From: an uncultured delta proteobacterium
Lineage (GTDB): Bacteria; Desulfobacterota; Desulfobacteria; Desulfobacterales; JAFDCJ01
Assembly: GCA_963769935.1 (NCBI GenBank)
Contig: CAVYNY010000011.1
Span: forward strand, 544,001 to 608,000
Reading direction: 5' to 3'
Length of the DNA stretch: 64,000 nt
Shown here: positions 2 to 4,799 of the stretch, piece by piece
How the letters are laid out: each line of letters opens with the position of its first letter
Position numbering within the stretch: position 1 is the stretch's first letter
Program-made: the position numbers and the translations under genes
Notes under the pieces: generated by a model
The model's input: only the letters and a program-made list of their open reading frames with translations
Databases searched by the model: none
Told to the model about the DNA's origin: nothing

Positions 2-751
2 ATGGGGGCCAAGGAATCCATGAAGGACACGGCCCGCGTCCTGGGCCGCATGTATGACGGAATTGAATATCGCGGGTTCGGGCAGGCCATCGTCGAAGAA
101 TTGGCAAAATATGCCGGCGTGCCGGTCTGGAACGGATTGACGAATGAATATCACCCCACCCAGGTGCTGGCGGATTTCCTAACGATGATGGAGTATTCGG
201 ATAAACCGCTGCATCAGGTGAAATTTGCTTACCTGGGGGATGCCCGCAACAACATGGGCAATTCTCTGCTGGTGGGCGCTGCCAAAATGGGAATGGATTT
301 TCGATCTGTAGCCCCCCTAAGCGTCCAGCCCAACAAGGAGCTGGTTGCAACCGCCAACCGCATCGCCGGCCAAACCGGAGCCACGATCACCATCACTGAT
401 GACCTGAACAAGGGCCTGAAAGGGTGTGATTTTTTATACACGGATGTGTGGGTTTCCATGGGCGAACCGGAAAAGGTCTGGCAGGAGCGTATCAATCTGC
501 TTAAACCCTATCAAGTCAATGCCGCCGCCTTAGAAAAGACCGGCAATCCGCACGTGAAGTTTATGCACTGTCTGCCGGCATTTCACAACCGGGAAACCAC
601 CATCGGGGAGGAAATTTTCAGAAAATTCGGCCTCGAGGCAATGGAAGTCACCGAAGAAGTGTTCGAGTCCCCGGCTTCGATTGTGTGGGACGAAGCGGAA
701 AACCGCATCCATACGATTAAGGCCGTAATGATTGCGACCCTGGGCGCATGA
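2..751 (+). CDS. argF: Ornithine carbamoyltransferase (5'-truncated by window)
   Basis: [13 protein letters not shown] and FMHCLPAFH motifs; sits next to carbamate kinase, so likely the catabolic (arcB-like) type. Confidence 0.93.
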
Positions 752-796
752 TGCTCAAAGCTCTATTATGATCCGGGTAATTAAATGAGAATTATA

Positions 797-1013
797 CAAA
801 TTCCAAGCACCAAAAGCCAAATTTCAAATAAATCACAATGACCCAAATTCAAAATTCCAAACAAATGATCCTTTCCAAGTCAAACTTATTGGACTTATCT
901 TCGGCACGCCTGGATTCGTGAGTCAAGTTGACACAACGATAGTGCATGTTTTGGTCATTTGATATTGAATATTGAGATTTATTTGTCATTTGGTGCTTGA
1001 AATCTGGGATTTT
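797..1013. repeat. Inverted-arm intergenic element, family A copy 1
   Basis: Left arm caaattccaagcaccaaa... is complementary to right arm ...tttggtgcttgaaatctgggatttt; related copies at 40287 and 61594. Confidence 0.85.
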
Positions 1014-1072
1014 ACCGCCTTATTAAGGTTTTCTGATGGCTGTCAACTATTTTAGTCCAGAGGTTACTAACG

Positions 1073-2000
1073 ATGAAATCTAAGCCCATCATCCTAATCG
1101 CCTTGGGCGGCAACGCCCTGATAAGAAAAGGACAGAAAGGGACCCATAAGGAACAGTTTGTCAATCTAAAGCTGCCGATGCGCCAGATCGCCCGACTGTC
1201 CAGGCAATACAAGTTTGTAATTACCCATGGCAACGGTCCCCAGGTCGGCAATTTACTGCTGCAGCAGGAAAGCTGCGATAAGGTGCCGAAAATGCCGTTG
1301 GAGATCATCGGCGCCATGACCCAGGGCCAAATCGGTTATATGCTTGAGTCCTCGCTGGATGATGCATTGATGGAAATCGGCATCAACGGCGAGCAGCATT
1401 TTGTGACAATGATAACCTACGTCGTGGTGGATCAAAATGATCCGGGTTTTCAAAACCCCACCAAGCCGATCGGACCCGTTTATACCGAAGAGGAGGCGTC
1501 GAAACTGCCGTACACCATGGTCAAAACCGATAAAGGATTTCGGCGCGTGGTCGCATCTCCCATACCGTTAGCCATCGTCGAACGACGCGAGATTAAAAAA
1601 CTCATCGAAATGGATTTCATTGTTATCTGCTGCGGCGGCGGGGGCATACCGGTTATCCGCAAGGAGCGCAAATTTCGCGGGGTTGAGGCGGTGATCGACA
1701 AGGATCTGGCCAGTTCCATCTTGGCCCGGGAAATTAAAGCCGGAAATCTTTGTGATCGCCTCGGACATCGCCGGCGCCGGCATCAACTGGGGCACGCCCG
1801 ACCAGCAAATGCTCGGCAAGGTATCTTTGTCGGAAATGGAGCAGTATGTTAAGGCGGGCCAGTTCCCCGCCGGCTCAATGGGTCCCAAGGTGCAGGCAAT
1901 CGTCGAATTCTTTAAAGAAACCGGCAATCGCGGAATCATCTGCCATCTGGAAGATATTGAAAAATCAATTGCAGGAGAAGCAGGAACGGAAATTTTTTAA
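1073..2000 (+). CDS. arcC: Carbamate kinase (one frameshift near 1740)
   Basis: IALGGNAL, THGNGPQVG, GGGGIPV and VIDKD motifs in ORF 1073; FPAGSMGPKV in ORF 1752..2000. Confidence 0.92.
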
Positions 2001-2022
2001 TATTTTCACGGAGGAATAAATT

Positions 2023-3366
2023 ATGTCCAAAAAAAATGTTATTATTATCGGTGCCGCCGGAAGAGATTTTCAAAACTTCAACACCTATTACCGCGGCAAT
2101 GAAGATTACAACGTGGTGGCCTTCACAGCTGCGCAGATACCGGACATCGAAGGTCGCAAATATCCGGCGGAACTGGCCGGCAGCCTGTATCCGGACGGAA
2201 TACCGATTTATGCGGAAGAAGATCTTCCCGGATTAATCAAGGAGCTGAATGTGGATGACTGTGTGTTTTCATACAGCGATGTCTCCTATCAGCACGTTAT
2301 GTCGGTCGGCGCCATCGTGAACGCGGCCGGTGCTAATTTTGTCATGCTGGGACCGAAAGACACCCAGATCAAGAGCATAAAGCCGGTTATTTCAGTGGGC
2401 GCGGTTCGCACCGGTTGCGGCAAGAGCCAGACCTCGCGCCGTATCATTGAAATCCTGATGGCCAAAGGAGCTTAAAGTCGTCGCCATCCGGCACCCCATG
2501 CCTTACGGTGATCTTGCCGCCCAGAAAGTCCAGCGCTTTGCCGAGTTGTCCGATCTTGAGAAGCACAACTGCACCGTGGAAGAAATGGAAGAATACGAGC
2601 CCCACGTGGTCCGCGGCAACGTCATTTATGCCGGTGTGGATTACGAAGCGATCGTTCGGGCGGCGGAACAAGATCCGGCCGGCTGCGATGTCATTCTGTG
2701 GGACGGCGGCAACAACGACTTTCCGTTTTACAAATCCGATCTGCATGTCACCGTGATCGATCCTCATCGTCCCGGCCATGAAATGACCTATTATCCGGGC
2801 AATGTCACGTTGCGGATGTCCGATGTGGTGGTGATCAATAAAATGGACAGTGCCGATGCCGAAGGTATTGAGATTGTACGCCGCAATATCGCCAGTGAAG
2901 CCCCGGCTGCGATTGTCATCGACGGTGCCTCCACCCTGGATGTGGATGACCCGGCCGTTATCCGCGGCAAGAGAGTCCTGGTGGTGGAAGACGGTCCGAC
3001 CCTGACCCACGGTCGAAATGAAAATCGGCGCCGGAGTGGTGGCGGCCCGCAAGTTCGGGGCCGCTTGAACTCGTCGACCCGCGGCCTTATACGGTGGGCA
3101 GGTTGTCGGAAACCTTTGAGATTTATCCGGAGATCGGGACCGTCCTGCCGGCCATGGGCTACGGTGAGCAGCAGTTAAAGGACCTTGAAGCAACCATCAA
3201 CGCCACCGACTGTGACGCAGTGGTGATCGGCACCCCCATTGATCTGAACCGCATTATAAAAATCGAAAAACCCAACACCCGGGTCTATTACAGCCTGCAG
3301 GAACTCGGCCGGCCGAATTTCGATATGGTACTGGATGATTTCGTAAAGAAACATAAACTGGGATAG
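2023..3366 (+). CDS. arcE: Arginine synthetase (ArcE) / cyclic 2,3-diphosphoglycerate synthase-like family protein; three single-base insertions (~2472, ~3014, ~3066)
   Basis: GAAGRDFxNFN, AFTAAQIPDI, RTGCGKSQT, WDGGNND and EDGPTLTHG motifs spread over ORFs 2023, 2498 and 3094; clustered with OTC and carbamate kinase. Confidence 0.78.
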
Positions 3367-3370
3367 CTAA

Positions 3371-3505
3371 GTTATTGGTTCTTGGTTATTGGTTATTGGT
3401 TTTCGCTCTTAGTTATTATACCCAAACTTGTTTCTTGCTTTATAGATTATGGGTGTCAGAAGTAAGACCAATTCTCTAATAACATATAACTAATAACAAT
3501 TAACT
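3371..3505. repeat. 7-nt periodic repeat (ttattgg)x~4 with degenerate complementary arm
   Basis: gttattggttcttggttattggttattggtt ... accaattctctaataacatataactaataac. Confidence 0.75.
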
Positions 3506-3533
3506 AGTCGGCCTGCGGCCGATTAAAGGAGGA

Positions 3534-4799
3534 ATGATGAGCCAGACTTCCAATGCGCAATTGGCGCAGCTGAAAACACAGGTCATATCCGAAGGTGTCG
3601 GCATTACCACGACAAATTTTATCCAATCGGCGCAAGGTGCTGTTCTGCGGGATGTGGAAGGCCGGGAATTTATTGATTTTGCCGGCGGCATTGCCGTGAT
3701 GAATGTCGGCCACAGCCATCCGAAGGTAGTGGCGGCGATCAAGGAGCAGGCCGAACGATTCACCCATACCTGTTTCATGGTTAACCCGTATGAATCTGCG
3801 GTGACGCTGGCGCAAAGACTTTGTCGCCTCACCCCCGGCGATTTTCCCAAGCGGGCCGTATTTTTAAACTGCGGGGCCGAAGCGGTGGAAAACGCGGTTA
3901 AAATTGCCCGCTACTACACCAAACGACCGGCCATTATTGTTTTTGAAAACGCCTATCACGGACGCACGCTGCTCACCATGACCATGACCAGCAAGGTCAA
4001 ACCTTACAAATTCGGCTTCGGCCCCTTTGCACCGGAAATTTACCGGATACCATTCGGCGATGTTGCCGGCGCCGACAAACTGTATGACGTCTTCATCAAG
4101 CACGTCAACCCGGAGTCTGTGGCAGCAGTTGTCGCCGAGCCGGTTCAGGGCGAAGGCGGATTCATCGCGCCGCCTGCGGGATACTTTCAGCAACTGACCA
4201 AGATCTGCCACGACAACGGCATTCTGTTTGTGGCCGATGAAATCCAGAGCGGTATGGGACGAACGGGTAAAATGTTTGCCATCGAACACTGGGGGGTGGA
4301 ACCTGACATGGTGATCGTGGCCAAAAGCCTGGCCGCCGGCATGCCCCTGGCGGCGGTGGTCGGCAAACAGGAAATCATGGACTCCGTACACTCCTGGGGC
4401 CTGGGTGGAACCTACGGCGGCAATCCGGTGGCCTGCGCGGCAGCACTGGCCGTGCTGGACATATTTGAAGAAGAAAACATGCTGGCCAAATCCGTTGCGC
4501 TGGGGGACAAACTAAAGGCGCGATTTGAAAAGTGGCAAAAGGATTTCAGTCTTATCGGTGAAATCAGGGGGCTGGGTGCCATGCTCGGATTGGCAATCGT
4601 CAAAGGCGGGCAAAAAACGCCGGCGCCGGATGAAGCCAAAAAGCTGGCCGCCTACTGTCTCGGCAAAGGCCTGCTGGTATTGGTCTGCGGAAGTTACGGC
4701 AACGTTGTAAGGGTCCTGGCGCCGTTTGTCATTACCGATGAGCAATTGGAAAAAGGTCTTTCCATCATGGAAGAAGGGCTGAAAGAAATTTCCGGTTAG
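3534..4799 (+). CDS. gabT: Class III PLP aminotransferase (GabT / ornithine omega-aminotransferase-like)
   Basis: IDFAGGIAV, YHGRT, EPVQGEGG, ADEIQSGMGRTG, AKSLAAG and GGTYGGNP motifs. Confidence 0.85.
   Translation: MMSQTSNAQLAQLKTQVISEGVGITTTNFIQSAQGAVLRDVEGREFIDFAGGIAVMNVGHSHPKVVAAIKEQAERFTHTCFMVNPYESAVTLAQRLCRLTPGDFPKRAVFLNCGAEAVENAVKIARYYTKRPAIIVFENAYHGRTLLTMTMTSKVKPYKFGFGPFAPEIYRIPFGDVAGADKLYDVFIKHVNPESVAAVVAEPVQGEGGFIAPPAGYFQQLTKICHDNGILFVADEIQSGMGRTGKMFAIEHWGVEPDMVIVAKSLAAGMPLAAVVGKQEIMDSVHSWGLGGTYGGNPVACAAALAVLDIFEEENMLAKSVALGDKLKARFEKWQKDFSLIGEIRGLGAMLGLAIVKGGQKTPAPDEAKKLAAYCLGKGLLVLVCGSYGNVVRVLAPFVITDEQLEKGLSIMEEGLKEISG

Follow-up and report, generated by a model that had tools for sequence, protein, structure and literature searches.

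A run of genes for arginine and guanidino-compound metabolism crosses the beginning of the window, by which we mean the whole 64,000-nucleotide stretch analyzed here (contig CAVYNY010000011.1, C11 of the source genome G000, positions 544,001 to 608,000 of the forward strand, from an uncultured delta proteobacterium). All genes of the run are on the + strand. The ornithine carbamoyltransferase (OTC) gene (window 1..751; G000:C11:543750-544751; 333 amino acids (aa)) starts 250 nt before the window, and is followed by the carbamate kinase gene arcC (1073..2000; TIGR00746 matches both of its pieces), an ArcE-family gene with the motif GAAGRDFQNFN (2023..3366; 446 aa when read through), which begins MSKKNVIIIGAAGRDFQNFN, and a gene for a GabT-type 4-aminobutyrate (omega-amino acid) aminotransferase (3534..4799). 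A preliminary description of the window had given this order, and the four genes were located as claimed. The genes of its cluster are present, but the run begins outside the window, with a PAS-domain σ54-dependent activator (G000:C11:540309-542054; L001:14309-16054; 581 aa) and an intact gene for an AGAT-type amidinotransferase (G000:C11:542346-543503; L001:16346-17503; 385 aa), which stops about 500 nt before the window. The run probably encodes a catabolic cycle in which the amidinotransferase would take amidino groups off a guanidino compound and feed them to ArcE.

Alignment to two relatives revealed single-base insertions in this region: three in arcE (near 2470, 3013 and 3063), one in arcC (near 1742), and a further one near 8219 in a gene for a GSA-aminomutase-like class III aminotransferase (7073..8414, +). 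The three indels of the preliminary description are thus recovered in arcE, while those in arcC and near 8219 had gone unmentioned. In close-strain contigs from public sequencing runs, the extra base near 1742 (1742/3) is absent in three of four runs, and those near 2470, 3013, 3063 and 8219 are absent in two of the four. Because the close-strain contigs lack each extra base, the frameshifts in arcE, arcC and the GSA-like gene are assembly errors, and a pseudogene can be ruled out. Of 75 loci tested in the assembly, 12 appear broken, four of them in this cluster. Contigs assembled from one sediment RNA run lie over 29 of 30 bins of window positions 1-8500, which suggests that this region is transcribed.

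The genome G000 is 96.7% complete. It carries dsrA over its cut-off, and the named close homologues are few and mostly come from Desulfobacterales or related deltaproteobacteria. The host, a sediment bacterium with sulfate-reduction genes, is thus probably a sulfate reducer of the Desulfobacterales order; the preliminary description, too, had taken it for a sulfate reducer. Single genes for OTC, carbamate kinase and arcE were found in G000. The GC content of the cluster region gave no island signature.

The ArcE-family protein

A motif scan yielded 42 arcE loci, two of them from Thermococcaceae. The Thermococcaceae orthologues L229 and L234 were used to stand in for TK2200, the ArcE of Thermococcus kodakarensis, whose primer sequence had 0 exact matches in the contigs. 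L229 encodes a 449-aa protein; translation of the published primers for TK2200 matches its start and nearly matches its end. The window ArcE, read through its breaks, shares 58% identity with both L229 and L234 over 440 aa, and an intact genus orthologue is 59% identical to the Thermococcus orthologue. By comparison, the window ArcE has only 20-25% identity with six of seven true cDPGS sequences (verified as such by PDB comparison), mostly over 75-86 aa, the seventh giving no listed match. Against the cDPGS structure 9sxb it scored E 2e-4 over 112 aa, while a true Thermococcaceae cDPGS used as a control reached E 2e-187 in the PDB search. In a 90-row quick IQ-TREE tree a branch with support 100 separates the seven cDPGS rows from all others, and the window protein lies with ArcE. 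Taken together, the full-length ArcE identity, the weak cDPGS match and the tree rule out an annotation as cDPGS or GTPase; cDPGS (PDB 9sxb, 8ork) is a distant P-loop relative of ArcE and the source of the usual misannotation. The assignment of gene 2023-3366 to the ArcE family, first made in the preliminary description, is solid at the level of sequence.

The Q of the window motif is natural, being present in 50 of 120 close homologues (H in 68 of 120), and is not an error or defect. Among 160 columns conserved in 41 motif-picked ArcE proteins, 149 are kept in the window ArcE, and three of the 11 misses are placeholders at the breaks. That the ArcE-like protein of this lineage uses another substrate, such as agmatine, might be supposed from one position that is N in 39 of the 41 other ArcE proteins and T in 12 of 12 linked ones; moreover, TK2200 is the sole assayed ArcE in the literature found. 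However, the conserved columns are largely kept and TK2200 rejects agmatine (PMC11032458). Decay of the genes, the other form of this explanation, is opposed by the close strains that lack the indels and by the RNA contigs. We regard either form as highly improbable.

TK2200 is specific for arginine and its reaction is reversible, and ArcE has already been published from Thermodesulfobacteria (Geobacter, Desulfovibrio, Desulfosarcina) (PMC11032458). In the class, arcE is widespread, being carried by 141 of 401 genomes. It was argued in the same paper that argG and argH in a genome speak for ArcE running catabolically. Both genes, which the preliminary description had listed for checking, were found in G000 together with carB, and by this argument they point to a catabolic direction of ArcE in G000.

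The upstream amidinotransferase and its predicted regulation

All seven PDB sequence matches of the upstream protein are amidinotransferases, the best being human AGAT (E 3e-87), and the seven include no ADI, DDAH or agmatine deiminase. Its structural model (predicted local distance difference test, pLDDT, 80.5) has the fold of human AGAT (PDB 1jdw; template modelling (TM) score 0.87, 40% identity), against TM scores of 0.53-0.60 to ADI, DDAH and ArgZ; fold E-values were 1e-40 for AGAT and 1e-13 or weaker for the hydrolases. The catalytic residues D208, H256 and C363, assigned via human AGAT numbering (PMC3684758), are kept, as are D118, N253, D258 and R275. Equivalents of N300 and R322 are also present, while Ile stands at the M302 position and Cys at the S354 position. 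N300 and M302 act in substrate binding in AGAT (PMC4887976, PMC3684758). Sequence and model thus agree that the upstream protein is an AGAT-type amidinotransferase and not a deiminase.

If the upstream protein were instead a hydrolytic deiminase acting on arginine, agmatine or a guanidino acid, the presence of OTC and carbamate kinase could be understood with no need of ArcE. The deiminases belong to the same superfamily, and the upstream protein, which has no NCBIfam match, does match PF02274 weakly, below the cut-off. In addition, two nitrilase-family amidases, one of them AguB-like but below the cut-off, lie beside putrescine transaminase and Pot-type ABC transporter genes elsewhere in G000 (C18:245584-253053, L284), and aguA was not found in this genome (PF04371 has no match). 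Against this, the structural and sequence matches above favor amidinotransferases throughout, and the OTC is a clear member of its family (PRK04284, 570 bits, cut-off 515) that falls far under the putrescine carbamoyltransferase cut-off (289 bits, cut-off 500). Such a deiminase therefore seems very unlikely. The preliminary description had seen no arginine deiminase in the cluster, which agrees with a genome search in which neither arcA nor aguA was found; the gene upstream encodes the amidinotransferase instead, and arcE sits with arcB and arcC in adjacent genes. The presence of this amidinotransferase makes other guanidino compounds, rather than free arginine, the likely input of the pathway.

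G000 contains two more amidinotransferase paralogues, at C11:164067-165239 (49%) and C22:199611-200735 (61%), the latter adjoining TRAP and ABC transporter genes. A DDAH-like gene lies at C32:77285-78046.

A σ54 -24/-12-like motif lies at L001:16271-16286, about 75 nt 5' of the amidinotransferase gene. Such a motif was found 5' of the amidinotransferase in five of five loci with the activator, in one of 10 without it and in 0.15% of 2000 shuffles. The σ54 activator is therefore predicted to turn the run on, and the genes from the amidinotransferase to gabT may form one transcript. Scans for σ70 promoters and terminators gave results at chance level.

Linkage of amidinotransferase and arcE

An AGAT-type amidinotransferase gene is present in 29 of 401 genomes of the class. 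The amidinotransferase tree (87 rows, FastTree) divides into a clade of 74 rows and a group of 13. All 20 class genomes of the 74-row clade have arcE (G213 via a contig-end piece), against the background of 141 of 401, while arcE occurs in two of nine genomes of the 13-row group. The amidinotransferase adjoins arcE in nine genomes of five families, in varying order and often with a sodium:solute symporter. Within the genus, 21 of 22 genomes carry an amidinotransferase and 18 of 21 carry arcE; in 10 of the 18 the two genes are at most 3 kb apart, and the amidinotransferases are 40-90% identical to ours, so that different sub-clades pair with arcE. Two arcE lineages pair with the amidinotransferase (L131). 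Among 79 metagenome loci with the amidinotransferase, four show arc genes, and L132 has the identical order with all genes intact.

Outside the Desulfobacterales order the link was not found among named or sampled genomes. A sample of the phylum gave amidinotransferases, all distant, in four of 400 genomes. In another phylum distant ones occur in 31 of 301 genomes, with an arc gene within 1.5 kb in 0 of 30 loci.

One sub-clade of amidinotransferases is linked to symporter genes and often lies beside arcE (L046, L047, L083-L086, L090, L101, L120). In this sub-clade Trp replaces R322 in 10 of 11 sequences and Gly replaces S355 in 11 of 11, which suggests that it uses a different donor. In the locus L033:676-7363 (G210), amidinotransferase, OTC, carbamate kinase and arcE genes are followed by genes for a DMT transporter, an MttB methyltransferase and saccharopine-dehydrogenase-like proteins, a hint that the donor there is methylated or based on lysine. 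In L089 (G331), a single run holds both arcA and arcE, together with arcC, arcB and a gene for a class III aminotransferase. On low-GC marine contigs (19 loci among L170-L200), SAR11-like by composition only, the amidinotransferase gene lies directly 3' of creatinase without arcE, hinting that the substrate there is creatine or guanidinoacetate.

The GabT-type aminotransferase and the donor

The preliminary description had proposed that the GabT-like aminotransferase could consume ornithine. The protein scored 553 bits with TIGR00700 (4-aminobutyrate (GABA) transaminase, cut-off 507) and 273 bits with TIGR01885 (ornithine transaminase, cut-off 378), and GABA transaminases also head its PDB matches (E 7e-133). 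The true ornithine transaminase of G000 lies elsewhere (C39, 569 bits). GabT as an ornithine transaminase is thus rejected, and its proposed use of ornithine is not supported.

In 15 genus loci with a close amidinotransferase orthologue, gabT lies 3' in 11, a contig edge in three and neither in one. G398 and L173 have the order amidinotransferase, gabT, GSA-like transaminase, aldehyde:ferredoxin oxidoreductase (AOR). A divergent fusion of putrescine transaminase and AOR adjoins the amidinotransferase run in G398, L173, L336 and L337, and genes of a Pot-type polyamine ABC transporter lie near the run in L132, L173, L334, L335 and L337. The orthologues in G000 lie elsewhere in the genome (putrescine transaminase 84%, Pot genes 79-90%, AOR 78%), and the putrescine transaminase on C18 is not fused to AOR as it is in the relatives. 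An L-2-hydroxyglutarate oxidase-like gene follows gabT in six genus loci (one confirmed), so that a donor with a five-carbon chain would also fit; no orthologue of it was found in G000. As a marker of amidinotransferase genomes, putrescine transaminase proved weak and was rejected.

R322 of AGAT acts in binding a carboxylate, and HsvA, titled a polyamine amidinotransferase, has equivalents of neither N300 nor R322. The upstream amidinotransferase has both, which favors a guanidino acid over agmatine as the direct donor. Given the cycle proposed below, the most likely direct donor, at roughly even odds, is an omega-guanidino acid of four or five carbons, such as 4-guanidinobutyrate. Agmatine is the next candidate, about half as likely, and all other compounds together are about as likely as agmatine.

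A proposed catabolic cycle

We propose that the amidinotransferase, ArcE, OTC, carbamate kinase and GabT form a catabolic cycle that takes amidino groups off a guanidino compound and gains two ATP per group; from the sequence evidence we put its probability at about 0.6. After import of the guanidino compound, the amidinotransferase would run in reverse and transfer the amidino group to ornithine (X-guanidine + ornithine -> X-amine + arginine). ArcE would then convert arginine + ADP + Pi to citrulline + NH3 + ATP, OTC would convert citrulline + Pi to ornithine + carbamoyl phosphate, and carbamate kinase would convert carbamoyl phosphate + ADP to ATP + CO2 + NH3. GabT may deaminate the freed omega-amino acid, and aldehyde:ferredoxin oxidoreductase may oxidize the resulting aldehyde. 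The net reaction would be X-guanidine + 2 ADP + 2 Pi -> X-amine + 2 NH3 + CO2 + 2 ATP.

The OTC step toward ornithine and carbamoyl phosphate is thermodynamically unfavorable, and the removal of ornithine by the transfer step would help it. Ornithine is likely a recycled carrier in the cycle, which would explain why no arginine/ornithine antiporter (ArcD) was found over the cut-off in G000. The near-equilibrium amidino transfer could be pulled by ArcE and carbamate kinase: the AGAT reaction is reversible with K about 1 (PMC9950171). Human AGAT accepts GABA, beta-alanine and taurine (PMC9772407).

Several observations weigh against this cycle. The amidinotransferase tree is unrooted, and the 20 genomes of the 74-row clade are not independent, because they fall in eight families, some of them rich in arcE anyway. 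Three of 21 genus genomes (82-92% complete) have no arcE match, the whole arcE lies inside the run in only four of the 15 genus orthologue loci, and no arc gene is visible in 75 of the 79 metagenome loci. The amidinotransferase occurs in only about 22 of the 141 arcE genomes of the class and in 0 of the 42 motif-picked arcE genomes from other groups. Putrescine transaminase is present in five of 21 amidinotransferase genomes and five of 40 controls, and gabT-like genes are common (17 of 21 and 19 of 40, respectively). Within the run, 246 nt separate the amidinotransferase gene from the OTC gene and 321 nt the latter from arcC. Finally, three ureohydrolase-family genes of G000 could hydrolyze the same guanidino compounds.

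Another explanation, the one favored by the preliminary description, is that the arginine synthetase pathway serves free arginine, with amidinotransferase and gabT as a separate neighbor, for example in arginine or nitrogen salvage for biosynthesis. Most arcE genomes indeed lack the amidinotransferase, which in the genus is tied more tightly to gabT than to arcE (11 and four of 15 loci), and in the low-GC marine loci it accompanies creatinase without arcE. The OTC, as the only one found in G000, must also serve biosynthesis. However, arcE repeatedly adjoins amidinotransferases of different sub-clades, with two arcE lineages involved, a single σ54 motif precedes the whole set, in which amidinotransferase and gabT flank the arc genes, and no arginine/ornithine antiporter was found over the cut-off in G000. 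On balance we consider this explanation unlikely. Were it alone to hold, the locus would be an ordinary new member of the published pathway.

Alternatively, the cycle may run in reverse: arginine would be regenerated from ornithine by carbamate kinase, OTC and ArcE, and the amidinotransferase would produce a guanidino compound that serves as a nitrogen store, osmolyte or phosphagen precursor. Both the ArcE step (PMC11032458) and the AGAT step (PMC9950171) are reversible, and the characterized amidinotransferases in the literature examined are biosynthetic. Nevertheless, carB, argG and argH are already present in G000, no phosphagen kinase was found there, the neighboring genes encode importers and degradative enzymes, and the carbamate kinase of T. 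kodakarensis is an insufficient supplier of carbamoyl phosphate (PMC13260591). A reverse cycle thus appears quite improbable, and the catabolic cycle remains the preferred interpretation.

Extended to the order, the proposal would be that its sediment sulfate reducers degrade agmatine-derived and related omega-guanidino compounds through a reverse amidinotransferase and ArcE loop yielding two ATP, in which swappable amidinotransferase sub-clades with their own importers and downstream enzymes widen the range of donors and ArcE is the general harvester. We regard this extension as evenly balanced.

Relation to known pathways

The arginine synthetase pathway of T. kodakarensis consists of ArcE (TK2200), ArcB (TK0871) and ArcC (TK2158) (PMC11032458, PMC13260591). 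The three enzyme families are the same here, identity to Thermococcus ArcE orthologues is 58-59% over the full length, and arcA was not found. The two systems differ in that the genes here are clustered with the amidinotransferase, gabT and the σ54 activator, in that ornithine would be recycled here and is drained to proline there, and in that the host here has carB, argG and argH. AGAT and its bacterial relatives HsvA, SxtG and StrB1, the known members considered here, are biosynthetic, in contrast to the amidinotransferase studied here, which is predicted to work toward arginine in a catabolic context.

Agmatine is degraded by agmatine deiminase (AguA), putrescine carbamoyltransferase and carbamate kinase, and guanidinobutyrase and agmatinase provide other routes. 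All of these act on the same compound class and lead to putrescine or GABA, but they hydrolyze the amidino group with a gain of one ATP or none, whereas the proposed route would transfer it and gain two. Urea-releasing degradation routes for these compounds are mentioned in a 2025 review (PMC12623156). In Actinobaculum massiliense, each of the loci 01647-01650 (arcA, arcB, arcC and AGAT) is upregulated more than 8-fold in biofilms of urinary catheters (PMC6314084). There, too, an amidinotransferase is numbered next to an arginine-catabolic set with high expression in vivo; that organism, however, uses arginine deiminase (one ATP), while the cluster here has ArcE. The authors tied the AGAT set to polyketide synthesis, and catabolic transamidination is not proposed in the excerpt of that paper. 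The word "amidinotransferase" is absent from the main text of PMC13260591. Among the top-ranked papers of the literature searched, which lacked most subscription journals, we found nothing on an amidinotransferase that feeds ArcE or on transamidination as a catabolic route to ATP. The likely amidinotransferase-fed cycle would thus be a variant on the published arginine synthetase pathway, and the clue to the donor looks new.

The microbial pathways known for non-arginine guanidino compounds hydrolyze the amidino group and gain one ATP or none. If the proposal is true, a transfer-based route would yield two ATP by substrate-level phosphorylation, which would be valuable to energy-limited anaerobes of sediments. 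An enzyme family best known for the synthesis of creatine and natural products would also acquire a role in catabolism, which would explain why such enzymes occur in nearly every genome of the genus.

Other features of the window

The GSA-like aminotransferase gene (7073..8414) is possibly part of the amidinotransferase-arc system; its orthologue lies near or beside amidinotransferase or gabT in G210, G398, L173 and L333. Between gabT and this gene, positions 5073-5903 (+) encode a protein in which rhodanese and rubrerythrin are fused and whose reading frame contains a TGA codon (5292-5294) where the active-site residue is expected. L123 has this TGA too, and G000 carries a tRNA-Sec, so the fusion is likely a selenoprotein. 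The gene after it (5851-7041) matches TIGR03169 below the cut-off. The intergenic stretch between the OTC gene and arcC (about 780-1020) is AT-rich and partly matched by many unrelated contigs; it is probably a dispersed repeat. Further downstream, a full rRNA operon with two tRNAs occupies 8513-14081 (-) and a 6S RNA gene lies at 17631-17812 (-).

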